DNA of 27,298 nt from an uncultured Armatimonadetes bacterium (lineage in GTDB: Bacteria > Armatimonadota > Fimbriimonadia > Fimbriimonadales > GBS-DC). This document shows, piece after piece, positions 144 through 27,058 of this stretch (positions are counted from its first letter, which is position 1; each line of letters opens with the position of its first letter). The notes under the pieces were generated by a model. It was not told where the DNA came from, searched no databases, and was given only the letters and a program-made list of their open reading frames with translations. A program made the translations under genes and the position numbers. The DNA is taken from contig CAKZQI010000030.1 in NCBI GenBank assembly GCA_937139515.1, forward strand, positions 1-27,298. Reading direction: 5' to 3'.

Positions 144-206
144 AAAATGGGGACGAGGAGCACGAGCGGGCGAGACGCCCGCGCTCCCAGACAAAAGTTC
201 GCACCG

Positions 207-950
207 CTACCGAAAGCCCTGAACCAGCGCCTGCGCCAAAATGCCCCAACCGTTCGCCAGCGTGAACACCAACAACTTCGCCGGAAGCGACACAATCACC
301 GGGGGCAACATCATCATTCCCATCGAGAGCAGAATGCTCGCCACAATCAGGTCAATAATCAAAAACGGGATGAAGATGTAGAAGCCGATCAGAAAAGCGG
401 TCTTCAACTCGCTGAGAATGAAGGCGGGGATGAGCGTTGTGAGCGGCAGCTCGTCGGCAGTGCGTGGGGCGGGTTGCTTGCTGAGGCGGATGAACAGGTT
501 GAGGTCTTCGGTGTAGGTTTGGCGGAGCATAAAGGCGCGTACGGGCTTCTGAGCGCGCTGGGTCGCCTCTTGGAAAGTAATCTCTTGGCGCATATACGGC
601 TCCAGCGCTGTGCGGTTTATCTCGTCCAGCGTCGGCGCCATCACATAGAAGGTCAGGAACAGGCTCAGCCCTATCAGCACAGGGTTCGGCGGGATGTTGG
701 GCGTGCCTAACGCACTCTTGAGGAACGACAGCACAATCACAATCCGCGTGAACGCCGTCATCATCAACAGAATAGAGGGCGCCACCGAGAGCAAGGTCAA
801 CAGCGCCAGGATTTGAAGCGAGGTAGAGACCTCTTGTGGGTTGCGGGCGTTGCCGACCTCAACGCTCACGCGGGGCAGAGGCACGGTCTCCTGCGCCATC
901 AACGCAAGTGGAACCAGCCCCAAAACGATCACCCAAACCCAGCGGTTCAT
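207..950 (-). CDS. fliP: Flagellar biosynthesis protein FliP (type III export apparatus)
   Basis: 247 aa with a signal peptide. Conserved FliP block TAFTRIVIVLSFLKSALGT..PPNPVLIGLSLFLTFYVMAP and multi-TM architecture. Start overlaps the fliO stop (ATGA). Confidence 0.9.
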   Translation of the reverse strand: MNRWVWVIVLGLVPLALMAQETVPLPRVSVEVGNARNPQEVSTSLQILALLTLLSVAPSILLMMTAFTRIVIVLSFLKSALGTPNIPPNPVLIGLSLFLTFYVMAPTLDEINRTALEPYMRQEITFQEATQRAQKPVRAFMLRQTYTEDLNLFIRLSKQPAPRTADELPLTTLIPAFILSELKTAFLIGFYIFIPFLIIDLIVASILLSMGMMMLPPVIVSLPAKLLVFTLANGWGILAQALVQGFR

Positions 951-1513
951 ACGCCTCTCCCCAATAGCGTCTCCAGTTTCTGGCGGGTCTGTTGCAGGCG
1001 TGTTTGGACCTGCTGTTCCGTTTCGCGCTGGTAGTCCGAAGGGGGGCTATACGGCTGGGCGCGTCGGAGGGTTTGTTCAAAAGTGGCGTCGGCGGGAGCG
1101 GGGTTCGCTTCGGGCAGGGTGTCGGTCAGGTCAGCGATCAGTTGAAGCCCTTGCGGGGTACTGCCCACGAGGAGCAGTTTATCGCGCGCCTTGACCAGCA
1201 TCAGGCTCCCACCCGGCACCGCGCGGGTTTCAATCACCTTGACCTGTCCATCCACAGGGGAGCCGTTGCCCGTTTTGCTCGCCCAGCCGAGCAGTTTGGG
1301 CAAGCCGTAGCGTAGCCCGACGGCGACCACCCCCAGCGCCAGCGTCGCCTGAAGCCAGTTGAGCGAACCCCCTGAACTGGGCGGGGGCGCAATCCCGACG
1401 GGCGACCCTGTCCGCGTGCCGAACGCCCCCGGCTCCAGCGAAGCGTTCGGCTCCTGAGTCCACAGGCAGGCGACAAGCGCAATCCACAACCCTATTAGTG
1501 CGACGGTTCTCAT
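947..1513 (-). CDS. fliO: Flagellar biosynthesis protein FliO-like (single-TM, Pro/Gly-rich)
   Basis: 188 aa. One N-terminal TM helix then a Pro/Gly-rich region. It sits immediately between fliN/Y and fliP with 1-nt and 4-nt junctions, the canonical fliO position. The sequence itself is poorly conserved. Confidence 0.6.
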   Translation of the reverse strand: MRTVALIGLWIALVACLWTQEPNASLEPGAFGTRTGSPVGIAPPPSSGGSLNWLQATLALGVVAVGLRYGLPKLLGWASKTGNGSPVDGQVKVIETRAVPGGSLMLVKARDKLLLVGSTPQGLQLIADLTDTLPEANPAPADATFEQTLRRAQPYSPPSDYQRETEQQVQTRLQQTRQKLETLLGRGV

Positions 1514-1514
1514 C

Positions 1515-2459
1515 TTAGGCTCCTAACTTTTGCACGCGCTCGGCGGGCGAGAGGATTTCGGTGATACGCACAGCGAAGTTATCTTCCACCACGACCACCT
1601 CGCCCCGCGCAATCAGTTTGCCGTTGACCAGCACCTCAACGGGTTCGCCCGCCGTTTTATGAAGTTCAATGATAGACCCTGTGCCGATTTCCAGCAGTTC
1701 GCGCACTGCCAAGTTCACGCGCCCCAGCTCCACCGAGACCTCCAACGGGATGTCCAGTAGGAGGTCTAAGTTGCGTTCGGTGGGTTCCTCCGGCTCGGCG
1801 AACGGGTTGAACGCCATTGGCGTCGCTGTGGGGGCAGGCGTTTCGGGTTCGCTGAGGAGTGAGGCGAGCGGGTCATCTTGGGCAGGTTGCAAACCTAGCA
1901 AAGCGCGTGCCAGCCCCTCTGTGAGAAGCCAAGTGAGCGTGAACGGCGTGCGGTCTGGTATCTGAACCGTGAAGCGAGTGACGATTACCTCGTCCACAAT
2001 CAAGAAGTTGGGCGGGAAGGTCACCGGTTCGTGGTGCGCTTGGGGGTCAGCAGGGCTGAAAGCGGTATTGCGCAGGTTCCCGAACGCTATCGCCAAGCCT
2101 TGGCTAAGGTGTCCTGCGAACTCCTTGAACAGCTGGACGACGGTCTCGTCTATCGTTTCGCTCGGCGTGCCTGTGAGTGCCTCAATGAGCGCTTTTTCGG
2201 TCTCGGCGCGCTCGCTCATCTGGTCGCCCACGACAACCAGGCTCGGCTCATCAGACGCCTCACGGAAGCCAATCTGGGCGTACAACACCGGGTCGGCGGT
2301 GAGCAGGGTCAGGTCGGTGATGGGCACCGCTTGACTGGTGGGCGTCGGGATTTCCACCAGCACATTATTCTGCTCCGAGAGCTGCATCGCCACCGTCTGC
2401 CAGACGGTTTCTTGCTTGACCACGAACTGCGTTAGGACTTCGGGCTTCACCGTGCTCAC
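1515..2459 (-). CDS. fliN: Flagellar motor switch protein FliN/FliY (C-terminal SpoA/FliN domain with extended N-terminal domain)
   Basis: 314 aa. C-terminus LLLDIPLEVSVELGRVNLAVRELLEIGTGSIIELHKTAGEPVEVLVNGKLIARGEVVVVEDNFAVRITEI is the FliN surface-presentation domain. The long N-terminal region suggests a FliY-type protein. Confidence 0.85.
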   Translation of the reverse strand: MSTVKPEVLTQFVVKQETVWQTVAMQLSEQNNVLVEIPTPTSQAVPITDLTLLTADPVLYAQIGFREASDEPSLVVVGDQMSERAETEKALIEALTGTPSETIDETVVQLFKEFAGHLSQGLAIAFGNLRNTAFSPADPQAHHEPVTFPPNFLIVDEVIVTRFTVQIPDRTPFTLTWLLTEGLARALLGLQPAQDDPLASLLSEPETPAPTATPMAFNPFAEPEEPTERNLDLLLDIPLEVSVELGRVNLAVRELLEIGTGSIIELHKTAGEPVEVLVNGKLIARGEVVVVEDNFAVRITEILSPAERVQKLGA

Positions 2460-2462
2460 AGG

Positions 2463-3473
2463 CTAATCCTCCGTAACGATATCAGTAATGCTAACGACAT
2501 AGCGTCGGTTGCGGATGGCGGGTTTGCCACGATATTTCAGTTTATCTTCAATCAGCACATCAATCTTGCCGTTCGTTGGGGCATTGAGGACGAGCGTATC
2601 GCCCACTTTGAGTTCCAGTAGTTGTTTGAGGGTCATTCGGGTGCGCCCCAAGCGTGCGTGGCAGGTCATTCGGGTCTGCTTGAGGTGTTGGGTGAGCGCA
2701 TGGCGGATGTAGGGTGTGGTGCGCTTGCCTGAGGCAGAGACCCAGTTCTGCGAGCTGAGGCGTGGGGTAATCGGCTTGATGACCATGTGGGGCACACAGA
2801 GGCTCATCGCATCGCGTCGGTCGCCCACGCGTGCCTCCATCAGCGCAGTAATCACAATATCGCTGGGGGGCGCCACCTGAACGAACTGGGCGCTGGTCTC
2901 CAAACTCTCCACCTGCGGGTCCAGTTGCAAGATGCTCTCCCACGCACTACGAAACGCCATCAGCGCACGCTCTGCCAGCGCAATCACGAGGGGACGCTCT
3001 ATGTCGGTGAAGTTGTTGCGCTCAATCGGGCGCCCGACCCCTCCCAGCAGGCGGTCAATCAGCGTGAACACCAGCGAGTACTCCATCTCCAAAACCGACT
3101 CGCCCGTGAGGGGAGGCGAGGCGAAGATGATGAAGCACGACTCCTTGAGCGAGCGCATATAATCCTCGTAGGGGATTTGTTCCAGCGAGATAAGTTCAAT
3201 ATGCACGGGCACGCGTAGGTAGGTGGCGAAGTTGGTGGCGCACAGGCGGGCAAAGGTCTCAAATACCATTTGGAGGGTACGCAGTTGGTCACGCGAGAAC
3301 TTGTCGGGGCGTCGGAAGTCGTACACCTCGTAGGCGATCATGCGCTTCTGGTTGGCTCGCGTGCCGACCGGTGTCGCAGCGGGCGACCCAAAATCGGCTC
3401 CTGAGGAACCCTCGTCCGCACTCAGCGAGGCTAATAACGCCTCAATCTCGGCTTGCGAAAGAATCTCGCTCAC
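2463..3473 (-). CDS. fliM: Flagellar motor switch protein FliM
   Basis: 336 aa. N-terminal LSQAEIEALL CheY-P binding motif. FliM middle domain and a C-terminal FliN-like domain (GKIDVLIEDKLKYRGKPAI). Confidence 0.9.
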   Translation of the reverse strand: MSEILSQAEIEALLASLSADEGSSGADFGSPAATPVGTRANQKRMIAYEVYDFRRPDKFSRDQLRTLQMVFETFARLCATNFATYLRVPVHIELISLEQIPYEDYMRSLKESCFIIFASPPLTGESVLEMEYSLVFTLIDRLLGGVGRPIERNNFTDIERPLVIALAERALMAFRSAWESILQLDPQVESLETSAQFVQVAPPSDIVITALMEARVGDRRDAMSLCVPHMVIKPITPRLSSQNWVSASGKRTTPYIRHALTQHLKQTRMTCHARLGRTRMTLKQLLELKVGDTLVLNAPTNGKIDVLIEDKLKYRGKPAIRNRRYVVSITDIVTED

Positions 3474-3514
3474 GGTATGTCCACCTCCTGTGCCCTAAAC
3501 CCCTTGTGGTTCGC

Positions 3515-3540
3515 TCCTGCTTGATTATCGGCAGGTTCAG
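3515..3540 (-). promoter_or_regulatory. Candidate sigma-28 (FliA)-type promoter for the fliM operon
   Basis: Minus strand reads CAAAAACTACCTGAACCTGCCGATAAT. GCCGATAA matches the FliA -10 consensus exactly. An A-rich -35-like element lies about 13 nt upstream, roughly 40 nt upstream of the fliM start. Confidence 0.4.
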
Positions 3541-3573
3541 GTAGTTTTTGCAGGGGTGGATGGGTTGGTGAGC

Positions 3574-3643
3574 GTCTCCCCCTGTTAGCCCGAGCGTTAG
3601 TAAGGGGTCTCAAACAGAGTGCGCGCACACCCTTCAGGATGAC
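3574..3643. repeat. Diverged copy of the ~70-bp palindromic element (same termini as 21533-21603)
   Basis: gttagcCCGAGCGTTAGTAAGGGGTCTC...CAGGATGAC. It shares the left arm and the terminal CAGGATGAC with the full copy; the internal and right-arm sequence differs. Confidence 0.45.
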
Positions 3644-3720
3644 AAGAAGCCTTGCGAGTGTGATTGAAATCACTGAAAAGGCGACCTTTTGTTAAGGTAG
3701 TTTTAGAGCGGAGGTGCACC

Positions 3721-4515
3721 ATGAACCTACCTGAACTCAGTTATGTGCAGTACTGGTTGGTGTACAATGCCTTTTCGTTTACCATAGCGGTGATGGCAGC
3801 GTCAGGGCTTTTCTTCCTGCTTGCCCGCAGCTATGTCGCCCCGAAGTACCATATTGCGCTCTATCTCTCCGCGTTAGTTGTGTTCATCGCTGGGTATCAC
3901 TACTTCCGCATCTTCCTGAGCTGGGATGAGGCGTACGATTTCAGCCAAGCCTCAGGAACCTATGTGCCCAGTGGTAAGCCGTTCAACGACTTCTATCGTT
4001 ATGCGGACTGGCTGATTACCGTACCGTTGCTTCTGACCGAGCTTATCTATGTGATGGCACTGCCTCGTGCGAAGGCGAATAGCCTCATCACCCGCTTGGT
4101 CATCGCGTCGGTGATTATGTTAGTGACCGGCTATCCTGGAGAGATAGCGCGCGACGATATGACGACCCGTCTCATCTGGTTCGTGCCCAGCACGCTGGCG
4201 TTCATCTACATCCTGTATGTGCTGGCGACGGAGCTGAACCGTGTGGTTGCTGAAGCGAAGTTCTCAGAAGCCGTCAACCGACGCATCTTCGCAGCGCGCA
4301 ACCTGACGATTATTACCTGGCTGTTCTATCCGATTGCCTATCTGGTGCCTGTGTTCGGCATTTCGGGTGCCACGGCTGAGGTAATCGTCCAGCTTGGCTA
4401 TAGCATCGCCGACCTGACCGCTAAGGCGCTGTTCGGCGTGATGCTCTACCTGATTGCTCGCGAGAAGACCCTGGCAGAAGAGCCAGAGTACGCTCGCACC
4501 GCCGCGACCCCGTAA
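3721..4515 (+). CDS. Microbial rhodopsin, xanthorhodopsin/Gloeobacter-rhodopsin-like proton pump (DTE motif)
   Basis: 7-TM protein. Helix C RYADWLITVPLLLTE gives a D/T/E proton-pump triad, and helix G has SIADLTAKALFG with the Schiff-base Lys. Strong similarity, recalled from memory, to Gloeobacter rhodopsin blocks (VYNAFSF, IAGYHYFRIF, TGYPGEI, YPIAYL). RBS GGAGGT sits 7 nt before the ATG at 3721. The upstream in-frame ATG at 3664 is probably not the start. Confidence 0.85.
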   Translation: MNLPELSYVQYWLVYNAFSFTIAVMAASGLFFLLARSYVAPKYHIALYLSALVVFIAGYHYFRIFLSWDEAYDFSQASGTYVPSGKPFNDFYRYADWLITVPLLLTELIYVMALPRAKANSLITRLVIASVIMLVTGYPGEIARDDMTTRLIWFVPSTLAFIYILYVLATELNRVVAEAKFSEAVNRRIFAARNLTIITWLFYPIAYLVPVFGISGATAEVIVQLGYSIADLTAKALFGVMLYLIAREKTLAEEPEYARTAATP

Positions 4516-4581
4516 ACTCACCATTTGGTGCGACTCCTCCATAGGGGTCGCACCCACTCCAAAGACGAGGAGGCTGATGTT

Positions 4582-5376
4582 ATGAAAAAGAATGGTTTTA
4601 CCCTTATAGAGCTGCTGGTCGTGATAGCGATTATAGCGATACTGGCGGCGATATTGTTCCCTGTATTTGCACAGGCTCGTGAACGGGCACGCTCGGCAAC
4701 CTGTCTCAGCAACCTGAAGCAGACCGCGCTCGCGACCAGCATGTATGTCCAAGACTATGATGAAACCTTCCCGGTGAATTTGTACCTGAACTTCCAGCCC
4801 AGCGGTACGCCGTGTGTGTTCTCGTTCTACCAAGCGATTTACCCCTACCAGAAGAGTGCAGAGGTGTGGGTCTGCCCTTCCAACCCGCAGGCAGTGGACA
4901 TTCAGCTTGCCTTCCAGCTGGTGCAGCTACCGCCTATCTGCCAACCTGCCTTGAAGTTCTACAGCTACGATTTCAACTTCGGGCTGATAGATTTCGGTGT
5001 GGATAACAATCTATTCCCTGGCACAGGTCGCGCTGTCAAGCGATTGGCTCAGATAGAGTACCCTGTTGAGACGGCGGTCATCTATGACGGTTCTATTGTG
5101 TTCCAAGGAGGACCGTTCAACCTGTTTGATACCCCGATTGAGGGGCGCCACGCAGAGTCAGCAAACGCGAACTATGTAGACGGACACACCAAAGTGGTGC
5201 GCCTGAGAAAGATGCTCGACTCGTCCGGACGATGGCTCTTTGGGCGTGCGATGGACAACCGATCCAATGTTTACGGTTGGCTGGTGTCCGACGGCGGTCC
5301 TTACAACGACCGCTATCAGATGCGGGGCATTCCGACACGCAACGCCGATGGCACTTGGGGCTTGATTGACCCCTGA
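4582..5376 (+). CDS. Prepilin-type N-terminal cleavage/methylation domain protein, H-X9-DG (DUF1559) family
   Basis: N-terminus [27 protein letters not shown] is a type IV pilin-like signal with G/F/E+5. C-terminal [12 protein letters not shown] matches the H-X9-DG motif. RBS AGGAGG precedes the ATG at 4582. Confidence 0.85.
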
Positions 5377-5402
5377 AGGCTTCCAAAGTCCTCACTATCT
5401 CG

Positions 5403-5442
5403 CATCCCCACCCTCTTTATGGAAGGTGGGGATGTGGTTTTG
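5403..5442 (+). terminator. Rho-independent terminator between convergent genes
   Basis: Perfect 10-bp inverted repeat CATCCCCACC-ctctttatggaa-GGTGGGGATG, followed by TGGTTTTGT. Confidence 0.6.
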
Positions 5443-7446
5443 TCAGAGGTATCGCTTCCACCAATCCAGATAGCGCTCTAAGCGGTCGCGGCGCAGGTCG
5501 GGGAGTCCACTGCGCGAGAGACCGTGGCTACTTTCCTGCGGATAGCGCACATACAGCACCTCGCGCCCTAACCGTTTGAGCGCAGAGAACAGCTGGTCTG
5601 CTTCACTGATGGGACAGCGCAGGTCGCCCTCGCTGTGGACAATCAGCAAGGGAGTGTGAATGCGCCCTGCCGAGGCGAGGGGTGAACACTCCCACAGTTT
5701 CTGAGGCTCATCCCAAAAGTTGCCCTTCCAATAACGGTTGGGGATTTGCGGGAAGTCGGAAGTCCCGCCCATACTCACAAGGTTCACGACACTGCGGTCG
5801 GTGATTGCCGCTTTGAAGCGGTCGGTGTGTCCCACAATCCAGTTGGTCATATACCCGCCGTAGCTCCCGCCTGCGACGCCCATCCGTTCGGGGTCTACAA
5901 ACGGCAGGCTCTGCAGATAATCGGCGACGCTCATCAGGTCTTTGAAGTCGCTGTTGCCCCAATCGCCCCGAATGGCGCGGGCGAACTCCTCGCCGTAGCC
6001 CATGCTCCCGCGCGGGTTGGTGTAGGCGACCACATAGCCCTCCGCTGCGTGCAGTTGGAACTCGTGGAAGAACACGCGCCCATACATCGCGTGCGGACCG
6101 CCGTGTATCATTAGGATGGTGGGGTAGCGTTTACTGGGGTCAAAGTCAGGCGGTTTCATCAGCCAGCCGTGGATTTTGACGCCATCATCGGCTTCCACCT
6201 CAAACTCTTCGGGCGCCACAATCTCCACCTCGTCCAACAGCGGCTGGTTGAGGGCAGTGAGCGGGCGCGTGTGGAGGGTGTTGCCCGTGCGCTCGGCGTA
6301 ATGCACCTCGTGCGGTTGGGTAGGCGAGCCAACGAGCATCGCCATTCGGTGCGCATCGCCTGCGATAGAGAGGTCTGCCACTTCAAAGTCGCCGTCCATC
6401 AGTTTCTCCAAGTGGGTGCCGTCGCGTCGCACACGATAAGGATAGACCCCGCCCCGCTCACTCACGAGGAAATAAATCATTTCGCTATCAGCGCTCCAGA
6501 GCAGGGGTGCGCCCCCACCGAACTCGCGCACATCGGTCAGCGTGCTGACCCCGACCGTGTTGTCCAAGTTCGGAATGAGGTCTACGGCGTCGCCCCCCTC
6601 CACCGACACGAGCCACACATGGTCGTTGCGCGGGTACGACTCTTCGGGGTCGGGGTTGCCGATGTAGGCAAGGTGCTTGCCATCGGGCGACCAGCGCAGG
6701 ACATATTTGGGTCCGTAGGGAGCGTCCACACGACGCGGTTCGCCCCCCTCGGCAGGCACAATCCAGATATCTACCTTGCCCGGCTCGTTATCGGGGTCGG
6801 GCTGACGGTTGCTGAGAAAGGCGATGCTCTTTCCGTCGGGCGACCAAGTGGGGCTGGACTCGCTGTAGGCGGAGTCCGTGGTGAGCTGGCGCATCTCGCC
6901 CGTCGCCACATCCACCACATAGAGGTGATAGCGTTGATTGAGGAACACACCGTCGCCGTCCAGCCGCCAGTAGGCGCGCTCAATCACGAGGGGTGGGTTG
7001 GATAGCCCTTTCTCTTGGCGTTCTTTGCGGGCGCGCTCGCGCCATTCAGGAGCAGTTTCGCGGTAAGTGAAGGCAATTTGGGTGCCATCGGGCGACCAAG
7101 CGAACTCGCCGATACTGCCCTCTTCCAAGCTCGTAAGCGGGCGTGCCTCACCCCCGTCCGCTGGAATGAGGTAGATTTGGCTCTTGGGCTTCTGACGGTT
7201 GCTAATAAAAGCAATCTGTTTGCCGTCGGGCGACCATCGGGGCTGGGAGTCGCTCCATTCGCCATAGGTAAAGGGTTGAGGCTGGTCTTCCCCAACCCGC
7301 ACACGCCACAAGTTAGAGAAATATTTATTCTTCTCGGTATCAATCCATTTGTACACGAACACCACCTGCGAGCCGTCGGGCGCGATTTGAGGACTGCCCA
7401 ACAAACGGATACGAAACAGGTCGTCAATAGTGATTTTGCGTTTCAT
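5443..7446 (-). CDS. S9-family serine peptidase (prolyl oligopeptidase/acylaminoacyl-peptidase-like) with N-terminal TolB-like beta-propeller
   Basis: Repeated WSPDGK/WSPDGT propeller motifs. C-terminal alpha/beta hydrolase with GGSYGGYMT nucleophile elbow (GxSxGG). Start chosen at MKRKITIDD (ATG 7444-7446), which has RBS GGAGGT. The longer ORF to 7518 is probably an over-extension. Confidence 0.8.
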   Translation of the reverse strand: MKRKITIDDLFRIRLLGSPQIAPDGSQVVFVYKWIDTEKNKYFSNLWRVRVGEDQPQPFTYGEWSDSQPRWSPDGKQIAFISNRQKPKSQIYLIPADGGEARPLTSLEEGSIGEFAWSPDGTQIAFTYRETAPEWRERARKERQEKGLSNPPLVIERAYWRLDGDGVFLNQRYHLYVVDVATGEMRQLTTDSAYSESSPTWSPDGKSIAFLSNRQPDPDNEPGKVDIWIVPAEGGEPRRVDAPYGPKYVLRWSPDGKHLAYIGNPDPEESYPRNDHVWLVSVEGGDAVDLIPNLDNTVGVSTLTDVREFGGGAPLLWSADSEMIYFLVSERGGVYPYRVRRDGTHLEKLMDGDFEVADLSIAGDAHRMAMLVGSPTQPHEVHYAERTGNTLHTRPLTALNQPLLDEVEIVAPEEFEVEADDGVKIHGWLMKPPDFDPSKRYPTILMIHGGPHAMYGRVFFHEFQLHAAEGYVVAYTNPRGSMGYGEEFARAIRGDWGNSDFKDLMSVADYLQSLPFVDPERMGVAGGSYGGYMTNWIVGHTDRFKAAITDRSVVNLVSMGGTSDFPQIPNRYWKGNFWDEPQKLWECSPLASAGRIHTPLLIVHSEGDLRCPISEADQLFSALKRLGREVLYVRYPQESSHGLSRSGLPDLRRDRLERYLDWWKRYL

Positions 7447-7556
7447 AGGAACCTCCAAGCCTCTGGTTCGCAGTGGTGGGAATTGTTCCTGCCTTCGGGC
7501 AGGCTGGGGGAAGGGCAAGACAGATTTGAAGGAACCCCTCCCCCAAGTGTTGGCTG

Positions 7557-9401
7557 TTAGTTGCTCTCTTCAGTGGGAGGCGCAACCTGTTCAGGTGCGG
7601 AGTTGGTCTGTGCGCTCATACGCACGGCGCCGATGCGTTGGGCAATCTGCATCAGTTGTTGTGCCATCTCGCCCAGTTTGCCGTTGCCATCGCCCATCGC
7701 TTGCAGTCCGCTGAGGGCGCCATCAATAGTCATCCCTAAGCCTAAGCCTTTGGCGTACTGTTCGGTCATGCGGGCGAGCGTTTCGGGGTCGCCGAAAATG
7801 TTCATAGTGCCTCGGCTCATGAACTCGCCAATCGAGCGCGCCAGCTCCACCTGCACATCGCGCTGGGCTTCCACGCGCAGTTTCTCGATTTCGAACTTGA
7901 GCGCCGCTTCGCTGTAGGTCTGGCGGTACTCCAGCGCTTGGCGTTCCACTTCCACGCGGGCGCGCTCCACCTCCACCTGTTCGCGAGCGATGTTGATGTC
8001 CACCATTTTCAGGGCGGTCTCACCGCGTGCGACCTGTTCGCGGGCTTTCGCTTCGGCTTCGGCGCGGGTAAGCGTCGCTTGCGCCTCCAGTTCTGCCGCT
8101 TGCTTGCGCGCTTCCGCCTGCTTCACCTCAGCGAACGCCTGCACTTGCACATCGGTCTCGCGCTTGATGCGCTCCTGCTCGATTTGTTGTTTGGCGGCGA
8201 TGAGTTTCGCTTGCGCCTCGCGTTCGGCGGCGGCAACTTGTTGCACGGTAATAATCTGCTGGTTGGCGCGCTCGCGCTCGGCTTGGGCTTCCAGCGCTTC
8301 GCGTTCGGCTTCGGCGCGTCGGCGTTCGGCTTCGGCGACCGCTATCTCCTTCTCGCGCTCGGTTAGCTCCACCGTCTTGGCGCGCTCGATGTCGGTCTTC
8401 TGGAGCTCTTGCTGGCGCAGGAGCAGGAGTTTGTCGCGCTCGATGGCGGCGGTGCGCACCGCTTGGTCTTGCTGGATTTCCGCCTCTTTTACTTGGCGGT
8501 CTTGCTCGATGCGGTAGGTCTCTGCCTCGCGCTTCTTCTCGGCTTGCACTTTGGCGACTTCGGACTGCTGAGCCGCCTCAGCTTCGGCACGCTGGCGCTC
8601 CAGCTCCAGAATCTCTTTCTGCGTCTGCACGCTCTTGAGCGTGATTTCGCGTTGTGCCTCCAGCTCGAGGCGGTTGCGCTCGACCAACGCCGACTGCGTA
8701 ATCTCGGTGATTTTGCGCTTACCCTGAGCGTCAAAGATGTTGTTGTCCGAGAGAAGCTCCTGAGAGGTCTGGTCTAAGCGGGAGATGGTGACCGATTCGA
8801 GGGTCAGTCCGTTTTGCTCGAGGTCGGCACGCACAAGTTGTTGTACCCCGCTGGCGAAGGCGTCGCGCTGGGCGTGGATTTCCACGAGGTCTTTGGTCGC
8901 CGCGACACTTCGGAGTGCCGAGACGAGCTTCTCAAACACCAACGCCGAGACCGATTGGGCGTTGACCGACTTGTCTCCCAGCGAGCGCGCCGCGTTGAGC
9001 ACCGACTCGGCGTCGGGTTGAACCTTGATGTAGAACTCCGCCTTCACATCCACACGCAGGTTATCGCGGGTAATCAGCGCGTCGGGTCCTTTGCGCTCCA
9101 CTTCCAGTTTCATCGTCTCCAGCGAGACGGGCACGCGCTCGTGCAGGAACGGCACATAAAGTCCACTGCTGTCAATCAGCACACGCCGTCCGCGCCATCC
9201 CGTAATCACATACGCCAAGTTCGCGGAGGGACGCAGGAACAGGTACTTCAGGGCGAGCATATAGCCCGAGATTAGGATGAGCGAACCGCCTACAATCCAG
9301 CTCACCAGCGAGTGGAAGTAGGTCCAGTTGCCCACGAATGCGCCCCCGATGAACCCTAACAGGGTTAGGAACAGCCCCAACAGCATCAGTAAGATGAGCA
9401 T
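7557..9401 (-). CDS. Flotillin-like SPFH/band-7 protein (YqiK/FloT family) with long E/A/R/Q-rich coiled coil
   Basis: N-terminal TM helices, an SPFH domain (YVITGWRGRRV...), then several hundred residues of EA-rich coiled coil typical of flotillins. It lies 5 nt downstream of the NfeD gene. Confidence 0.8.
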   Translation of the reverse strand: MLILLMLLGLFLTLLGFIGGAFVGNWTYFHSLVSWIVGGSLILISGYMLALKYLFLRPSANLAYVITGWRGRRVLIDSSGLYVPFLHERVPVSLETMKLEVERKGPDALITRDNLRVDVKAEFYIKVQPDAESVLNAARSLGDKSVNAQSVSALVFEKLVSALRSVAATKDLVEIHAQRDAFASGVQQLVRADLEQNGLTLESVTISRLDQTSQELLSDNNIFDAQGKRKITEITQSALVERNRLELEAQREITLKSVQTQKEILELERQRAEAEAAQQSEVAKVQAEKKREAETYRIEQDRQVKEAEIQQDQAVRTAAIERDKLLLLRQQELQKTDIERAKTVELTEREKEIAVAEAERRRAEAEREALEAQAERERANQQIITVQQVAAAEREAQAKLIAAKQQIEQERIKRETDVQVQAFAEVKQAEARKQAAELEAQATLTRAEAEAKAREQVARGETALKMVDINIAREQVEVERARVEVERQALEYRQTYSEAALKFEIEKLRVEAQRDVQVELARSIGEFMSRGTMNIFGDPETLARMTEQYAKGLGLGMTIDGALSGLQAMGDGNGKLGEMAQQLMQIAQRIGAVRMSAQTNSAPEQVAPPTEESN

Positions 9402-9406
9402 CCGAT

Positions 9407-10165
9407 TTACCCCCTTCGTAGATTTTGCTCCGTTTCAGGGTTTTCCTGCAAGAAGGGTTCGCTGAGGTCGACCCCGAACGGATTTGGCTCCACGATGTAT
9501 TCGTTTGTCCGCTCGTTATACTGTGCCACCAGCACGGGGGTTCCCGCAGGGATGGGAGGTTGCCCCGGCAGGGTGCGACAGCTCACACGCACGATGTCCC
9601 CGCTCCGAGCGTGAATATTGGCGACCCCTTGCTGAGAGTCGATCGTGAACACCGCCTGTCCTGTGCATCCGACGAGGTCGTATCGGGTGGGGGCGCGCTC
9701 CTCGCCGAGCAGACGAAACCGTCGCACCAGCAGCCCCGTCGTGCGCCCGATGAGTGCCATACCCACCAAACTTGCGACCACCGAGAGAGGCAGAAACAGG
9801 GTGGGCGTCTTGAGCAGGGGTTGAAGTAAGCCGTTGACGGTCAACCCAATCGCGCCCCAGAAAATCATCAGCACGGGGAATAGCACCGTGAGCGGAACGC
9901 CCATGCCTATCCCGAAGATTTGGAGGATTTTCCAGACGAAGGCGGTCGGGTCATCGTGATGGTGGGCGTGGCTCTTGTTCAGGTCGTGCGAGTCGGCATC
10001 GCTTGATTCGGCTTCGGTGGTCTCGCCCTCCGCAGAGCCATCATCCGCTTCTCCTGCGCTACTGCCCACCGCAGTGAACAGCAATCCTGCCGACAGAACA
10101 ATGCCCACCACCAGCGGCAACGCGAAGAGAAAGTTCCACCATTCCAACAGTTGAGCGAACGACAT
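9407..10165 (-). CDS. NfeD-family membrane protein (YqiJ-like), partner of flotillin
   Basis: Multi-TM N-terminal part. The C-terminal soluble beta domain (GQAVFTIDSQQGVANIHARSGDIVRVSCRT...) is typical of the NfeD OB-fold. It is in an operon with flotillin. It has an unusual acidic/His-rich insert (EADDGSAEGETTEAESSDADSHDLNKSHAHHHDD). Confidence 0.7.
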   Translation of the reverse strand: MSFAQLLEWWNFLFALPLVVGIVLSAGLLFTAVGSSAGEADDGSAEGETTEAESSDADSHDLNKSHAHHHDDPTAFVWKILQIFGIGMGVPLTVLFPVLMIFWGAIGLTVNGLLQPLLKTPTLFLPLSVVASLVGMALIGRTTGLLVRRFRLLGEERAPTRYDLVGCTGQAVFTIDSQQGVANIHARSGDIVRVSCRTLPGQPPIPAGTPVLVAQYNERTNEYIVEPNPFGVDLSEPFLQENPETEQNLRRG

Positions 10166-10291: not shown

Positions 10292-10843
10292 TCACTCGAA
10301 TGCTTCACGCACGGGCATCTCAAACCCTGGCAACACGGGCGCACCCCTGAGCATGTCCTGCTCCGTGAGAACCTCCACTGTGCCGTCCGCGCGGTACACC
10401 GTAATCGTGCGCTGGTCAGGGTCTGCTACCCACACCACCTGCACGCCCGCCTCCAGCCACTCTGCGACCTTGTCCTGCAGGTAAGCGTCAGTGTCGCTGG
10501 GCGAGCGCACCTCCAGCACCAAATCGGGCACCACACGGCTGAACTGCTCGCTGGGCACTTGGGGCAGACGCTCCTTGCGGATGAACGCAAAGTCGGGGGC
10601 ACGCACGCTCTCACCACGCGATGTTCTCAACACGAAGCCGACCTCTGCGATGTACGACTCACCCAGATTTTGGGTCAGCGCATAGTACCCCGTTCGAACG
10701 CCGATGCGCCCTGCGACTCTCCCGTGTCTTTCCCCTGCTGGCATTCGCTCGTGAACCTCGCCTCGTATCAGTTCGGCAGGCTTACCCAGATACTCCTGCT
10801 CAAACGCTTCCACCGTCATCCGCTTCGGAGCCACTTTCGTCAT
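10292..10843 (-). CDS. Uma2-family endonuclease (DUF820, putative restriction endonuclease-like)
   Basis: Conserved Uma2 blocks: MTVEAFEQ...GEVHERMPAGERHGRVAG..., PDFAFIRKERL, VPDLVLEVRSPSD and AEWLEAGVQVVWVADPDQRTITVY. Start chosen at the internal MTKVAPKR (ATG 10841-10843). Confidence 0.75.
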   Translation of the reverse strand: MTKVAPKRMTVEAFEQEYLGKPAELIRGEVHERMPAGERHGRVAGRIGVRTGYYALTQNLGESYIAEVGFVLRTSRGESVRAPDFAFIRKERLPQVPSEQFSRVVPDLVLEVRSPSDTDAYLQDKVAEWLEAGVQVVWVADPDQRTITVYRADGTVEVLTEQDMLRGAPVLPGFEMPVREAFE

Positions 10844-10901
10844 TCGACCACCCGCCTTAGTGTACCTGCTTTGGGGATGTTCAATCCCCGAAGCACCCCG
10901 C

Positions 10902-11384
10902 CTACCCCTCCCCAAACGGGCTACGAAACTGCTGGACGAAGCGGTCGTGCTCTGCCTCGGTTTGGAGGGGCAGTTGATGGTGCGCTGTGGCAGGAGCCGT
11001 GCAGTTGTAGGCTAACACTTGAGCGTTGATTTGCTGAATGACCTGTACCATCCCCTGCCAAGTCTCGGTTTGCCACACCAAGAACCGCTCCTCGCCCATC
11101 TCACAGATACGAGGATACTCCCGCTCAGCGATGAGCCAGAGCCTGTGGTAGTGGCTACGAATGCGTTCAATCTCGCGTGCGCGCTCCATCCAGTCGGGTA
11201 GCACGCCTGCACTCTTGAGCAGGCGGATAGCAGGGCGCATTTCGGGAGGCACAAACCACTCTTCGTCCATAGGGAGGGGTTTTCCGCGTCCGGGCAGGTT
11301 GTCAAACTTGCCTTCTTGCATCGCCTCTTCAATCTTGCGCTCGGCGATGATTTCTATCACACGCTGGATGTCAGGCTGGTGCAT
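10902..11384 (-). CDS. DUF1992 (DnaJC28-like) domain protein
   Basis: N-terminal IEEAMQEGKFDNLPGRGKPL motif characteristic of the DUF1992/DnaJ-homolog-C28 family. A -10 TATAAA ends about 9 nt before the ATG, so it is probably leaderless. Confidence 0.6.
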   Translation of the reverse strand: MHQPDIQRVIEIIAERKIEEAMQEGKFDNLPGRGKPLPMDEEWFVPPEMRPAIRLLKSAGVLPDWMERAREIERIRSHYHRLWLIAEREYPRICEMGEERFLVWQTETWQGMVQVIQQINAQVLAYNCTAPATAHHQLPLQTEAEHDRFVQQFRSPFGEG

Positions 11385-11479: not shown

Positions 11480-11968
11480 TTGGAGAGCGCTATGGGGCAA
11501 ACTTTTATCACTTTCAGCGTCTTGTTCGGGTTCTGGTTCGCTCTATCGGGCAAATTGGACGCGCTGATGCTGGGGACAGGGTTGGTCGTGGCGATGCTCA
11601 CTGCGTGGGTCTCGGCGCCGTTGGTGTCGGGAACCGCAACCCCAGCCCGCCTCTGCCGAGGCACGCTGAAAGTCTTAGCGTACCTACCTTGGCTTGTCAA
11701 AGAGATTATCCTGTCAGGGTTGGATGTGATGAAGCGCGTGCTCCATCCCCGAATGCCCATCGCCCCCAAAATCGTTGAGATAGAAGTTGACTTAGAGACC
11801 GATGTGGCGAAGGTGCTGTTGGCAAACTCCATCACCCTCACGCCCGGCACCGTCACTGTGGAAGTGGAGGGCAACACGCTGATTGTGCATGCGCTTACCG
11901 AGAAGTCGCTGGAGAGCTTGCTCTCAGGCGAAATGCAAGCACGGGTGAAACGGATTGAGTTATGTTAG
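11480..11968 (+). CDS. mrpE: Mrp/Mnh-type cation:proton antiporter subunit E
   Basis: 162 aa. Two N-terminal TM helices and an MnhE-like C-terminal domain (ITLTPGTVTVEV...LIVHAL). It is the first gene of the cluster. Confidence 0.7.
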   Translation: MESAMGQTFITFSVLFGFWFALSGKLDALMLGTGLVVAMLTAWVSAPLVSGTATPARLCRGTLKVLAYLPWLVKEIILSGLDVMKRVLHPRMPIAPKIVEIEVDLETDVAKVLLANSITLTPGTVTVEVEGNTLIVHALTEKSLESLLSGEMQARVKRIELC

Positions 11969-12219
11969 TCTCGGCGCTCTTCGTTATCTTGCTGGCAACC
12001 GGCATTTCGCTCTACCGAGCCGTGATGGGACCGACCGCCCACGACCGTGTGCTCGCTATCAATGTGGTCAACACGAAGACCGTCGTGATTATTGTGCTGA
12101 TTGGCTTCATCAACCGTCGTCCCGAAGTGTTTATGGATATTGCGATTATCTACGCCGTGATTAACTTCGTATCAACGCTGGCATTCCTGCGCTATTTGGA
12201 ATCGAGGAGGGTGGACTGA
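11962..12219 (+). CDS. mrpF: Mrp antiporter subunit F
   Basis: 85 aa with 3 TM helices. MnhF/PhaF pattern ...LYRAVMGPTAHDRVLAINVV... Overlaps mrpE by 7 nt. Confidence 0.7.
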   Translation: MLVSALFVILLATGISLYRAVMGPTAHDRVLAINVVNTKTVVIIVLIGFINRRPEVFMDIAIIYAVINFVSTLAFLRYLESRRVD

Positions 12220-12527
12220 TGACGCTCACTGAACTGCTGGCGGGCGCGCTGATTTTTCTGGGCAGTTTCGTGTTTGTGGTGGCAGGGATTGGGATTGTGC
12301 GCTTCCCCGACTTCTACTCGCGGGTTCATCCTGCAGGCAATGGCGACACTTTGGGTCTTCCGCTCGTCTTGCTGGGGCTGGCAATCTACGAAGGCTTCAC
12401 CCACACCAGCCTGAAAATCGTGCTGGTGCTCATCTTCCTACTGTTGACAGGTCCGGTGGCGTCGCACGCGCTGGCACGCTCGGCATTTCTCACACGCCAG
12501 CAAGAGGAGGAAAGTAATGTGGATTGA
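12219..12527 (+). CDS. mrpG: Mrp antiporter subunit G
   Basis: 102 aa. MnhG pattern GIVRFPDFYSRVH..G..DTLG with 3 TM helices. Confidence 0.7.
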   Translation: MTLTELLAGALIFLGSFVFVVAGIGIVRFPDFYSRVHPAGNGDTLGLPLVLLGLAIYEGFTHTSLKIVLVLIFLLLTGPVASHALARSAFLTRQQEEESNVD

Positions 12528-13047
12528 CCTGACCTTGTTAGGGCTGTTGTTAGCGCTGGCGCTGGGCATCACTTTCAGTCGGGACACGCTCACAGGGTCG
12601 CTCCTACTGGGCGCCTACAGTCTGATTTTGGCGATGCTGTGGGTGGACTTGAACGCTGCGGATGTTGCGCTCACCGAGGCGGCAATCGGAGCAGGCGTCG
12701 CCACCCCACTGATGCTGTTGGCGATTAGCCGAAGCACCCGTGCCGAGCTGGGCGAAGTGCTTATGACCGTTCAGCGCTATCGGCGTTTTCCACCCTTCTT
12801 GGTGTTGGGTTTGGTGGCAGGGGCGTTGGTCTACGCCTCGTTAGACATGCCTCCGCTCGGCAACCCGAACAACCCTGCGAACCAGCATGTTGCGCCCTAC
12901 TATGTCCAAAACGCCTACCACGAGACCGGCTCAGAGAACATCGTTACGGCGATTCTCGTGTGCTATCGGGGATTTGACACGCTCGGCGAGGTGCTGGTGG
13001 TGATGACGGCAGGCGTGGCGATGATGCTCATCCTCAGGAGAAGTTAG
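12517..13047 (+). CDS. MrpA C-terminal-like subunit (DUF4040 + MnhB domain; MbhD/MbhE-like)
   Basis: N-terminal half has the DUF4040 motif NAADVALTEAAIGAGV. The C-terminal half has the MnhB-domain motif NIVTAILVCYRGFDTLGEV. Confidence 0.65.
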   Translation: MWIDLTLLGLLLALALGITFSRDTLTGSLLLGAYSLILAMLWVDLNAADVALTEAAIGAGVATPLMLLAISRSTRAELGEVLMTVQRYRRFPPFLVLGLVAGALVYASLDMPPLGNPNNPANQHVAPYYVQNAYHETGSENIVTAILVCYRGFDTLGEVLVVMTAGVAMMLILRRS

Positions 13048-13048
13048 C

Positions 13049-13471
13049 ATGCACCGAGACCTGATTATCCAAGTGACGGCGCGCTACACCATCCCGTTCA
13101 TCCTCGTGTTGGGGGCATACATCATGTCCCACGGCAAATACGGCGCAGGAGGCGGGTTCCAAGGCGGGGTGGTGATTGGCACCGCTTTCATCCTGAGCGT
13201 CATCTCATATGGCTACGACCAAGCACGGCGCGACCTGAGCCGACGGCTCAGCGACTGGATGAGCCTGCTGGGTGCGGCGATTTTTGCGGTTGTTGGATTG
13301 GCAACGCTGGTAGCAGGGGGAAGATTCTTGGAATACACTATACTCTATTCCGCCGAGCCTATCCTGACGAACCAGGTGGTCATTTTCGTTTTGGAGGTCG
13401 CTATCGGCATTACCGTAGGCGGAGTTATCGTCACCCTGTTCGCTGAGATGCTGAGGGGGGGTCAGAACTGA
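13049..13471 (+). CDS. mrpB: Mrp antiporter subunit B
   Basis: 140 aa. HGKYGAGGGFQGG signature of MrpB/MnhB, with 4 TM helices. Confidence 0.7.
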   Translation: MHRDLIIQVTARYTIPFILVLGAYIMSHGKYGAGGGFQGGVVIGTAFILSVISYGYDQARRDLSRRLSDWMSLLGAAIFAVVGLATLVAGGRFLEYTILYSAEPILTNQVVIFVLEVAIGITVGGVIVTLFAEMLRGGQN

Positions 13472-13503
13472 ACCCGCTTATCGAGAAGTACTACTGGGTC
13501 AGT

Positions 13504-13872
13504 ATGCTCGTCTTCATACTGGGACTGTACATGACCATCGTGAAAGGCAATCTCATCAAGAAGGTCATCGGTCTCAACTTAGCTCAGACGGGCGTCTACA
13601 CCTTCTTCATTCTCACCGCCAAAGTGAACGAGAGCACCGCCCCTGTGTACATCGGGGATGAGGTGCGCTATGCGAACCCTCTACCCCAGGTGCTAATCCT
13701 GACGGCGATTGTGGTGGGGATTAGCCTGACAGCGTTCGCGCTGGGGCTGGTCATTCGTATCTATCAAGCCTACGGCACAATTGAAGAGTCTGAACTGAGC
13801 CGACTGGTGCAGGCGAACAGAGAGGCGCAACCCTCTACCCTGACCCCCAGCTCGTCGGGAGGGGAGGGCTAA
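13504..13872 (+). CDS. mrpC: Mrp antiporter subunit C (NuoK-like)
   Basis: 122 aa. NuoK/MnhC-like 3-TM protein (LGLYMTIVKGNLIKKVIGLNLAQTGVYTFFIL). The C-terminal tail is Pro/Ser-rich. Confidence 0.65.
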   Translation: MLVFILGLYMTIVKGNLIKKVIGLNLAQTGVYTFFILTAKVNESTAPVYIGDEVRYANPLPQVLILTAIVVGISLTAFALGLVIRIYQAYGTIEESELSRLVQANREAQPSTLTPSSSGGEG

Positions 13873-13876
13873 GCGG

Positions 13877-15526: not shown

Positions 15527-15530
15527 CACG

Positions 15531-17324: not shown

Positions 17325-17509
17325 AAGGTCTGCGCTGGATTTTGTTGGGCGTTTGGCTCGTCGGTCTGCTGGCGGAGAGCCTGCTCACGAAACAGAAACT
17401 CCCTCTCCCGTACGCCCTGTTGGGGCTGATTGGGACTTTCGGTTTCGTGCTGGCTTACGAACTATTCGGCAAGCGTCTGTTAGCCCGCAAGGAGGACTAC
17501 TATGCCTGA
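17321..17509 (+). CDS. Small (62 aa) membrane protein translationally coupled between two antiporter subunit genes
   Basis: MKGLRWILLGVWLVGLLAES...LLGLIGTFGFVLAYELFG gives two predicted TM helices. Its ATG overlaps the upstream stop (ATGA) and its stop overlaps the downstream ATG by 8 nt. Confidence 0.5.
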   Translation: MKGLRWILLGVWLVGLLAESLLTKQKLPLPYALLGLIGTFGFVLAYELFGKRLLARKEDYYA

Positions 17510-19248: not shown

Positions 19249-19977
19249 ATGAAGCAATCAATCGGCGACTGGGCACTGATCCAACAGACCGTATCGTGGG
19301 GCATCACCCTTACCCCACACCAGCTGAGCCAGCTGGAACGCTATCTGGAACGGCTTTATGAGACCAACCAGCAGTTCAACCTGACACGGGTGCCCCCTGA
19401 ACAGACGGTAGGACGCCACATTATCGACTCGCTCTGCTTGCTGGCTGTCGCTGAGTTTGCGGAGGGCGCACGCTTGCTGGACATCGGTACGGGCGCTGGA
19501 CTGCCCGGCATTCCTCTCGCTATCGTTCGTCCTGACCTGCAGGTGACCTTGCTCGACTCCCACGCGAAATCGGTGCGCTTCTTGGAGCAGGTCTGCCAAG
19601 AGTTAGGACTGAAGGCAATCGCCATCCACGCCCGCGCTGAGGAGTGGGCGCATAACTCCGCCGTGCGAGAGGGGTTTGACAGTGTCGTTGCCCGTGCCGT
19701 CGCCAAAATGCCCGTACTGGCAGAACTGATGCTCCCCTTCTTGAAAGTTGGCGGAACTGCCCTTGCCCTCAAGAGTATCCACGAACACGATGAGGTCCTC
19801 AGCGCCCACAAAGCGGTTGAGCAGTTGGGGGGTCAACTCTGCTTGCACGAGGTTCCTATCCAGGCCGAGCAAGGTACGCTCACACGCCTCATCGCGCGCA
19901 TCACCAAAACACACCCCACCCCCAGTGCATATCCCCGCCGTTGGAGCCTCATCACGAAACATCCCCTACACGAATGA
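19249..19977 (+). CDS. rsmG: 16S rRNA (guanine527-N7)-methyltransferase RsmG (GidB)
   Basis: Conserved blocks: YETNQQFNLTRV, GRHIIDSL, LLDIGTGAGLPGIPLAIVRPDLQVTLLDSHAKSVRFL and VVARAVAKMPVLAELMLPFLKVGGTALALKS. Located near oriC. Confidence 0.9.
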   Translation: MKQSIGDWALIQQTVSWGITLTPHQLSQLERYLERLYETNQQFNLTRVPPEQTVGRHIIDSLCLLAVAEFAEGARLLDIGTGAGLPGIPLAIVRPDLQVTLLDSHAKSVRFLEQVCQELGLKAIAIHARAEEWAHNSAVREGFDSVVARAVAKMPVLAELMLPFLKVGGTALALKSIHEHDEVLSAHKAVEQLGGQLCLHEVPIQAEQGTLTRLIARITKTHPTPSAYPRRWSLITKHPLHE

Positions 19978-23763: not shown

Positions 23764-23839
23764 GGTGCGGTACCCAAGTGGCTAAGGGGAGGGACTGCAA
23801 ATCCCTTATTCGTGGGTTCGATTCCCACCCGCACCTCCA
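23764..23839 (+). tRNA. tRNA-Cys (anticodon GCA), CCA encoded
   Basis: Folded by hand. 7-bp acceptor stem GGTGCGG/CCGCACC, 3-bp D-stem, anticodon stem AGGGA/TCCCT with loop CTGCAAA (anticodon GCA), T-arm GTGGG-TTCGATT-CCCAC, and discriminator U73 (the Cys identity element). Followed by CCA and a T-run. Confidence 0.9.
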
Positions 23840-26698: not shown

Positions 26699-26857
26699 GG
26701 CTGAAGCGGTTCTCTGCCGATAATTGCGGGTTTTGAGCCAAATTCCCCCGAAAAGCCAAATTTTTTGCAGGAATCGCGAAAAGGGCAGGGTATACTTAGG
26801 GTAGCAACATCGGGACAAGCGGTCAACCCGTCCGCCTGCACCCGGAAGGAGGTTAGT

Positions 26858-27058
26858 ATGCAATCGGGTAAGGTAAAATGGTTCAACGACCAAAAGGGCT
26901 ACGGCTTTATCGTAGCCGACGATGGTCGTGAAGTCTTTGTGCATCACTCTGCGATTACGATGCAGGGGCACAGGACGCTGTACGAAGGGCAGTCTGTTGA
27001 GTTTGAAGTCGTGCAAGGTCCCAAGGGCTTGCAGGCGCGCAACGTTGTCCCGAAGTAA
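26858..27058 (+). CDS. csp: Cold-shock protein (CspA family)
   Basis: [18 protein letters not shown]...VFVHHSAI has RNP1/RNP2 motifs. RBS GGAAGGAGG. The longer listed ORF from 26765 is an upstream extension. Confidence 0.9.

Follow-up and report, generated by a model that had tools for sequence, protein, structure and literature searches.

We analyzed a 27,298-nucleotide stretch of DNA from an uncultured Armatimonadetes bacterium (assembly GCA_937139515.1, contig CAKZQI010000030.1; hereafter, the window), in which a xanthorhodopsin-family rhodopsin gene (3721-4515, + strand) lies divergently next to a flagellar operon headed by fliM. A first-pass annotation had proposed that the two units share a control region and that light-driven proton pumping might thereby be coordinated with motility. 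Comparison with related loci points to a different reading, to which we assign a probability of roughly 80%: the gene appears to encode an ordinary proton pump of the xanthorhodopsin clade with a control module of its own, it is paired with a pilin-like gene, and its position beside fliM would be accidental.

The rhodopsin and its chromophore site

The interval originally singled out, 3474-4515, combines the fliM-rhodopsin intergenic region (3474-3720, 247 bp) with the rhodopsin coding sequence (795 bp). The rhodopsin itself stands, but the gene begins at 3721; position 3474 opens the intergenic region. Its 264-residue product matches the Pfam family Bac_rhodopsin at 132.1 bits (cutoff, 24.6) across residues 19-246, so the profile search that had been suggested supports the assignment. 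The best solved relatives are the rhodopsins TR (5azd, E value of 1.3e-81), psXR (9wfa), Gloeobacter rhodopsin (GR; 6nwd), Salinibacter xanthorhodopsin (XR; 3ddl), and Kin4B8 (7ytb), all of them outward proton pumps of the xanthorhodopsin clade. The resemblance to GR and XR noted in the first-pass annotation is therefore real.

The motif RYADWLITVPLLLTE (residues 93-107) supplies D96, T100, and E107, which are in register with D121, T125, and E132 of GR (these GR equivalents, and G178 below, were derived by offset arithmetic on the structure-match alignment). The Schiff-base lysine, K235, lies within YSIADLTAKALFG, aligns with the lysines of TR, psXR, and GR, and is invariant in all 121 aligned sequences (the window protein plus 120 homologues). 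In the same alignment, the pump residues H60, D96, T100, E107, D231, and K235 are essentially invariant. H60 sits in the context AGYHYFRIF, which is the same in GR and psXR; the counterion-paired histidine is H62 in XR and H75 in PR. Leu104 occupies the green-tuning position. Because every pump residue is in register, the earlier calls of a DTE triad, a Schiff-base lysine, and a light-driven H+ pump hold up, and outward pumping is a sound prediction from the aligned residues.

The site that admits a carotenoid antenna differs. Helix E of the window rhodopsin reads TRLIW-F-VPST where GR, psXR, and TR have W-G, and F154 aligns with G156 of XR, G178 of GR, and G172 of psXR at the carotenoid-fenestration site. 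Phenylalanine is present there in all members of the window clade (14/14; 70-92% identical), while the nearest outgroups (Thermaceae and others, 55-61% identity) have glycine, as do 76 of the 121 aligned sequences. A Trp or Phe at this site precludes carotenoid antenna binding (PMC12779958). From Phe154 and that statement, we infer that the window-clade rhodopsin uses retinal alone; the helix-E inspection recommended in the first-pass annotation thus speaks against antenna capacity. In the light, the protein would bind retinal and pump H+ outward without a carotenoid antenna.

As to the source of retinal, the Pfam scan of window open reading frames (ORFs) matched no retinal or carotenoid enzyme, in agreement with the earlier statement that blh and crt genes are missing from the window. 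None were seen in the related loci examined (∼1.7 Mb in total). A protein-database search with Thermus Blh, of limited sensitivity, gave 29 matches, of which all source-named ones were from Thermus or other Thermaceae and none from Fimbriimonadales.

The one other occurrence of the exact window rhodopsin is on a metagenome contig from JGI (L001) with the same fliP-fliO-fliN-fliM and rhodopsin layout. The relatives at 70-97% identity, among them one in the complete genome AP024673.1, all derive from metagenome-assembled genomes (MAGs) that carry the label Fimbriimonadales or Armatimonadota; the window itself comes from a hot-spring-type member of the Fimbriimonadales (phylum Armatimonadota). 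A literature search combining Fimbriimonadales with rhodopsin found nothing. Rhodopsins in the phylum are already known, as two abundant Armatimonadota with expressed rhodopsins have been reported from Yellowstone phototrophic mats (PMC11788075, ISME J 2025). In the mat metatranscriptomes, these rhodopsin transcripts displayed no specific diel response (PMC11788075).

The rhodopsin control module and its pilin-like partner

Alignment of the upstream regions of 15 rhodopsin loci revealed a palindrome, TGTGAT-N4-ATCAC(A/G/T), at the same position in 14 of them. The window copy, TGTGATTGAAATCACT (3659-3674; core GTGAT-N4-ATCAC), is centered 54.5 nt upstream of the rhodopsin ATG. The conserved order continues with GAA, a gap of ∼19 to 20 nt, (A/G)GGTAnnnT, and a GGAGGTG Shine-Dalgarno sequence. 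On the + strand of the window, the conserved columns are the −10-like GGTAnnnT (3697-3704) and GGAGG (3711-3715), the ATG standing 6 nt past the latter. This module (palindrome, GGTAnnnT, and strong Shine-Dalgarno sequence) travels with the gene across genome contexts.

The E. coli CRP consensus core is TGTGA-N6-TCACA, from which the window box departs by one mismatch. The box is essentially unique within each 20-kb rhodopsin locus, and it is absent upstream of a pilin-family gene that is not linked to a rhodopsin (L098). It was not found upstream of the Thermaceae rhodopsins examined, and among 65 XR genes from outside the Fimbriimonadales it precedes only three, all from Fimbriiglobus. In these planctomycete MAGs (L074, L075, and L092), the CRP-like box TGTGAGACGGGTCACT (with GACGAG in L092) is located 62 nt before the estimated rhodopsin start. 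From the conservation of the box and its spacing, we infer that a dimer of the CRP/FNR family controls, and perhaps activates, the rhodopsin gene. The signal conveyed by such a dimer might be cAMP or nutrient state, or it might come from a light cascade of the LdrP type.

LdrP is reportedly a CRP/FNR-family activator of the light-inducible carotenoid cluster of Thermus, as Takano et al. are said to have described in 2014. At the Thermus igniterrae locus (L028, 6180-10777 and 17138-19543), a blh gene (Pfam BCD) is divergent to rhodopsin and lies beside a CrtI/amine-oxidase-like gene, and LitR-like (MerR plus B12-binding) and CRP-family, LdrP-like genes are divergent to crtB, ∼7 kb from rhodopsin. 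As this cluster matches the light-inducible one, an LdrP-like cascade is a candidate regulator by analogy. However, the Thermaceae rhodopsins showed no such box upstream, and simple light induction is argued against by the lack of a diel response in Armatimonadota transcripts (PMC11788075).

The gene downstream of rhodopsin (4582-5376, + strand) encodes a 264-residue pilin-like protein with a prepilin N-methylation motif (GFTLIEL), a DUF1559 domain, four invariant cysteines, and H190-X9-D200-G201-H202. Pfam and NCBIfam uphold its earlier description as an H-X9-DG pilin-like gene: residues 2-26 match N_methyl and TIGR02532, and PF07596 (DUF1559) scores 30.6 bits (cutoff, 23.3). Within the H-X9-DG motif, H190, D200, and H202 are invariant and G201 is nearly so. 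The structure model has a long N-terminal helix (residues 8-58); a fold search returned type IV pilin and pseudopilin likeness for the N-terminal half and was uninformative for the C-terminal domain.

Orthologues of this protein (61-86% identity) directly adjoin rhodopsin in ∼20 loci; ∼20 of the 22 informative loci keep the pair. In the protein search, the top group comprised 14 clusters at ≥61% identity, and the next group reached ≤56%. The rhodopsin-linked group is monophyletic in a neighbor-joining tree, as is, within it, the sub-lineage with tandem gene order. Other Armatimonadota have members of the family at 52-55% identity, and these reside away from any rhodopsin. The closest member outside the rhodopsin-linked clade (52% identity, from a Chthonomonada... 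source; L098-L100:6001-9727) has gidB on one side and a gene for a membrane H+-pyrophosphatase on the other. Genes for GidB and a GT4 glycosyltransferase are also present 8-15 kb away from rhodopsin, both in L012 and in the window (19249-21104), a hint of an older neighborhood in common. Outside the pair, the flanks vary: the rhodopsin side shows 10 or more different contexts and the pilin side 6 or more, with holB as the commonest pilin-side neighbor (7 loci).

Two arrangements of the pair were found. The pilin gene is in tandem downstream of rhodopsin, with a gap of 63-66 bp, in the window and five further loci (L002-6), and is divergent upstream of rhodopsin in the others (L007-L022 and L095-97). 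In 10 divergent loci, the intergenic region measures 105-116 bp, and the box center lies 52.5-59.5 nt, often 54.5 nt, from each start codon. Both sides carry the same elements in mirror order (box, GAA, ∼19 nt, GGTAnnnT, ∼10 nt, GGAGG, ATG). This mirror symmetry around a central palindrome is strong evidence that rhodopsin and pilin would have been co-regulated in the ancestral divergent arrangement, and in most relatives the divergent pair would still be co-regulated from the central palindrome.

In the window, the box is still 54.5 nt from the rhodopsin start. Beyond this box, at ∼3625-3632, it carries GGGTGTGC, a decayed pilin-side −10-like remnant (consensus GGTATGCT) that is oriented toward fliM and has lost its TA. 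Locus L005 likewise retains a pilin-side GGTATGCT remnant beyond the box, although no pilin gene is present there. These two remnants fit a model in which a single inversion of rhodopsin together with the intergenic region, in the ancestor of the sub-lineage, produced the tandem order of rhodopsin, hairpin, and pilin.

The hairpin in question occupies the rhodopsin-pilin gap (4527-4554, + strand). It is GC rich, with a 12-bp stem, no U-tract, and a folding energy of −27.6 kcal/mol (z = −4.0); hairpins of different sequence occupy the same position in L002 and L005. It is probably a partial terminator or a 3' stabilizer. A second, terminator-like hairpin on the + strand (5403-5442; inverted repeat I9, CATCCCCACCCTC/GAAGGTGGGGATG plus a T-run) separates the pilin gene from the convergent S9 peptidase gene and marks the downstream end of the conserved module. 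The GC content of the rhodopsin-pilin module is 0.50-0.56, versus 0.59-0.63 in its flanks, which is compatible with a separate history but not diagnostic of one. Within 3400-5700, only chance-level two-copy repeats were found, with no terminal repeats or att-like sites, and the genes that border the module in the window include neither a transposase nor an integrase; a mobile-element origin was thus rejected.

The persistence of the pair raises the question of whether rhodopsin and the DUF1559 protein constitute a functional unit under a common CRP-controlled promoter, the periplasm-facing pilin-like protein acting as an accessory or chromophore-scavenging factor or as part of a pseudopilus linked to the proton-motive force (PMF). 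In such a two-gene module, one CRP-family dimer would serve the mirror-symmetric promoter, and the pilin would capture external retinal or carotenoid or join the PMF-linked pseudopilus. The pair is kept while both outer flanks change, the linked pilin clade mirrors the rhodopsin clade, the palindrome is central, adjacency survived the inversion, and the divergent partner at the same position in Thermaceae is blh, whose product forms retinal. Against this stand the rhodopsin-free family members at 52-55% identity, the two rhodopsin loci without a partner (L019 and L023), the neutral reasons for which short divergent promoters resist splitting, and a fold search that recognized only a generic pilin-like N-terminal half. 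On balance, we regard both the functional unit and the specific form of it given here as unlikely, though still the most credible of the alternatives. No published link between DUF1559 and rhodopsin was found among the titles and abstracts of the literature searched.

Two loci depart from the common pattern in other ways. In L019 (an Armatimonadota MAG), a CRISPR array with at least 22 copies of the 37-nt repeat GTAGCATTCGCCCCCAAGGGCGGGTGCTCATTGAAAC (81-1785) stands in place of the pilin partner and the CRP-type box and extends to ∼24 nt before the rhodopsin ATG (1809); this rhodopsin may be transcribed by read-through from the array. In L025 (1380-1560), a deletion joins the pilin gene, which has lost ∼4 N-terminal codons, to rhodopsin codon ∼75. 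Because the whole bidirectional promoter is removed, both genes look inactivated together, an assembly artifact being possible.

The boundary with the flagellar operon

The flagellar operon (207-3473, − strand) is a neighbor of the rhodopsin unit and lies outside it. It comprises fliM (2463-3473; Pfam FliM and FliMN_C, NCBIfam fliM_switch at 257 bits), fliN/Y (1515-2459; Pfam and NCBIfam), fliO (947-1513; Pfam FliO), and fliP (207-950; Pfam FliP). Coordinates and family matches bear out both the gene content given in the first-pass annotation and the divergent spacing, which is exactly 247 bp from the fliM start to the rhodopsin start.

A promoter of the sigma-28 (FliA) type had also been proposed for this operon. 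The corresponding element (3525-3553, − strand) consists of CTGCAAAA (3546-3553), 13 nt, and GCCGATAA (3525-3532). Exact copies of GCCGATAA number 2 in the window versus 0.57 expected, and two or more were obtained in 14 of 100 shuffles; by itself, the lone 8-mer is insignificant, and it is the conservation in relatives that is significant. Related fliM loci (n = 38; 70-93% FliM identity) included 35 with upstream sequence, and 33 of these, representing 25 distinct sequences, contain CTGCAAAA-N13-(T)GCCGATAAT at fixed spacing. The block has no set distance from the start codon and occurs in nine or more different upstream contexts. A footprint conserved across such differing surroundings belongs to fliM whatever lies upstream, and it supports the proposed promoter. 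The fliM-N/Y-O-P operon would thus be an independent unit under its own sigma-28-type promoter.

Homology breaks within the intergenic region agree with this separation. DNA homology to the closest fliM locus (L133) spans 196-3555 at 82.5% identity and ends just upstream of the sigma-28 −35 element. Homology to the rhodopsin loci begins at 3659 and extends, for L002 and L005, to ∼5370-5379. The ∼100 bp in between (3556-3658) are conserved with neither set. Because fliM homology stops at 3555 and rhodopsin homology begins at 3659, the 247-bp region comprises two abutted modules. A 14-nt repeat, GTT(C/A)AGGTAGTTTT (3535-3548 and 3691-3704), connects the fliM promoter spacer with the rhodopsin −10 region; it was discarded as a candidate element, with an estimated ∼0.4 occurrences expected by chance and no conservation in relatives.

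The adjacency is likewise confined to one lineage. With the exception of L001, neither gene tables nor tblastn placed fliM, fliN, or fliP near the clade rhodopsins within up to ±10 kb (∼25 loci), and the surroundings of the 38 related fliM genes, covered for up to 6 kb, hold neither rhodopsin nor the pilin partner. On contig FWPU01000318, a 90%-identical rhodopsin (at ∼25 kb) and fliM (at ∼83 kb) are ∼57 kb apart, and in the metagenome with a 92%-identical rhodopsin, the 93%-identical fliM sits on a separate contig (L133). The upstream or far-side neighbor of rhodopsin differs among the loci: a histidine kinase (L002-4), UvrD (L005-6), PPDK (L007 and L096-97), the RuvC region (L008-11 and L095), YfhO (L012-13), a UPF0182 protein (L024, whose rhodopsin is 97% identical), the 22-repeat CRISPR array (L019), or an MFS-like transporter (L023). 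The 38 fliM loci similarly have at least 10 upstream contexts. In L133, prophage-like genes, judged by eye, lie upstream of fliM (1982-5611; capsid-like 312-residue and protease/scaffold-like 261-residue ORFs), on which account the fliM upstream boundary appears to be a hot spot for rearrangement or insertion. The first-pass annotation had itself named absence of the neighborhood from related genomes as a sign of coincidence, and the proposed shared control with the flagellar operon finds no support in this comparison. In the light of these loci, the fliM-rhodopsin juxtaposition is best described as an apparently unselected, lineage-specific rearrangement at a variable boundary.

Co-regulation of rhodopsin and the fliM operon from a common divergent region, with light-generated PMF feeding the flagella and enhancing motility, is accordingly very improbable, and the comparison of loci has largely refuted it. 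It draws on the 247-bp proximity of the units, on the use of PMF by the flagellar motor and export apparatus, and on a palindrome that could act both ways, with the decayed leftward −10-like remnant still visible. Yet that remnant is without its TA, the intervening sequence is an unconserved junction, and each gene retains its own conserved promoter in unrelated contexts where the other is missing. PMF users are moreover numerous, so one of them as a neighbor is not improbable. If the pump benefits the flagellar motor at all, it would do so via the common PMF, regardless of gene position. Least probable of all is a photosensor signaling to the FliM/FliN switch or to a pilus for phototaxis, since neither the flagellar switch genes adjoining here, nor the pilin-like gene present throughout the clade, nor the existence of motility-controlling sensory rhodopsins elsewhere outweighs a full pump signature (including the donor E107 and the His-Asp pair), close solved relatives that are all H+ pumps, and gene tables, for the window and related loci, devoid of an Htr/MCP-like transducer or fused signaling domain.

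The reading preferred here, a self-contained pump gene paired with a pilin and accidentally adjacent to fliM, has several observations weighing against it. A tblastn search with E. coli CRP found no CRP-family gene in the window or in the Fimbriimonadales loci examined. A sigma-70 consensus scan of 3300-4700 gave no promoter match, and the rhodopsin promoter elements are therefore defined by conservation only. The symmetric palindrome stands ∼130 bp from the fliM promoter and may conceivably affect leftward transcription. Since blh and crt genes are missing from the window and were not detected for the clade, formation of the holoprotein may depend on external retinal. Finally, two rhodopsin loci, L019 and L023, have no pilin partner, and because compact divergent promoters by their nature resist splitting, persistent linkage by itself is no proof of common function.

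Other window genes, significance, and comparison with known systems

An Mrp-type antiporter cluster (11480-19199, + strand) is present ∼7 kb past the rhodopsin end, as had been reported, in the order mrpE-F-G, an MbhD/MbhE-domain subunit, MnhB, a 4L-like (MrpC) subunit, and three large Proton_antipo_M subunits. The functional link implied for it is not supported, as the cluster is missing from the ±10-kb gene tables of the relatives. The stretch from the pilin gene to a Uma2 endonuclease gene (10292-10915) holds an S9 prolyl-oligopeptidase gene (5443-7518), convergent with the pilin-like gene, and a pair on the − strand (7557-10165) encoding a 614-residue flotillin-like SPFH/Band_7 protein, with a long, highly charged region rich in Glu, Ala, Arg, and Gln, and a YqiJ/NfeD-like membrane protein. 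In L002, a Uma2-family gene is directly 3' of the pilin gene. Rfam and ARAGORN scans of the window found a single RNA gene, tRNA-Cys(GCA) (23764-23839, + strand), and hence no riboswitch or known small RNA near rhodopsin.

The second exact copy of GCCGATAA (26716-26723) lies upstream of a cspA-like gene and was rejected as a promoter; the CTGCAAAA −35 block is missing there, and the match is probably due to chance. The cspA-like cold-shock gene (26859-27059, + strand; 66 residues) begins ∼140 nt downstream of it. This part of the window (26841-27112) has 89% DNA identity to part of L017 and is followed, from 27166, by an ORF that by eye resembles electron-transfer-flavoprotein beta.

The rhodopsin itself adds little to current knowledge: pumps of the xanthorhodopsin type are common, and expression of rhodopsins by Armatimonadota in hot-spring mats is already on record. 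What the analysis does is remove an appealing but unsupported story of genomic wiring between rhodopsin genes and flagella, by showing through comparative footprinting that an apparently common divergent control region is separable. The interest that remains is modest and concerns the clade-wide loss of the antenna glycine (Gly to Phe), a strikingly clear CRP-type operator candidate upstream of a rhodopsin gene, and the persistent pairing with an uncharacterized member of the H-X9-DG pilin-like family. If rhodopsin and pilin did form a module, the pair would give a first clue to function within the very large H-X9-DG family, as well as an example of rhodopsin phototrophy gated by nutrients (cAMP) rather than by light.

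Among known promoters, those of FliA/sigma-28 (TAAA-N15-GCCGATAA) are matched by the window fliM promoter in its exact −10 element, GCCGATAA(T), and in an A-rich −35 element (cAAA) at N14; the −35 sequence is TAAAGTTT in the former, and the window has the block CTGCAAAA instead. At CRP-dependent promoters, the Fimbriimonadales box TGTGAT-N4-ATCACA equals the E. coli CRP core, and its spacing to the −10-like elements on either side is fixed. Some divergent CRP promoters share one central site, and the box is likewise central in the 10 divergent pilin/rhodopsin loci. The LdrP system of Thermus offers a partial parallel, with a litR-ldrP-like pair near rhodopsin in T. igniterrae, but no such box was found upstream of the Thermaceae rhodopsins.

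The prepilins of the DUF1559/H-X9-DG type from Planctomycetota, Verrucomicrobiota, and Armatimonadota (PF07596 and PF07963) have a class III signal peptide, GFTLIEL, DUF1559, and an H-X9-DG motif close to the C-terminus in common with the window protein. Unlike the family at large, the window lineage is rhodopsin linked and has a CRP-type box in common with its partner.

Among rhodopsins, XR, GR, psXR, and Kin4B8 agree with the window protein in family, DTE motif, His-Asp pair, and Schiff-base lysine, but they are antenna-containing pumps that bind a carotenoid through a fenestration opened by glycine (in XR, GR, and psXR, the glycines given above), where the window protein has phenylalanine. 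TR, the thermophilic rhodopsin of Thermus thermophilus JL-18 and the closest solved relative, has the same H/D/T/E/D/K residues over aligned residues 3-253, and in the protein search no outgroup came nearer than the Thermaceae rhodopsins. Glycine is kept in TR and the other Thermaceae proteins, in contrast to Phe154 of the window clade. The two groups also differ in gene order: rhodopsin is divergent with blh in the Thermaceae loci, whereas in the Fimbriimonadales loci, where no blh was seen, the pilin-like gene stands in its place.

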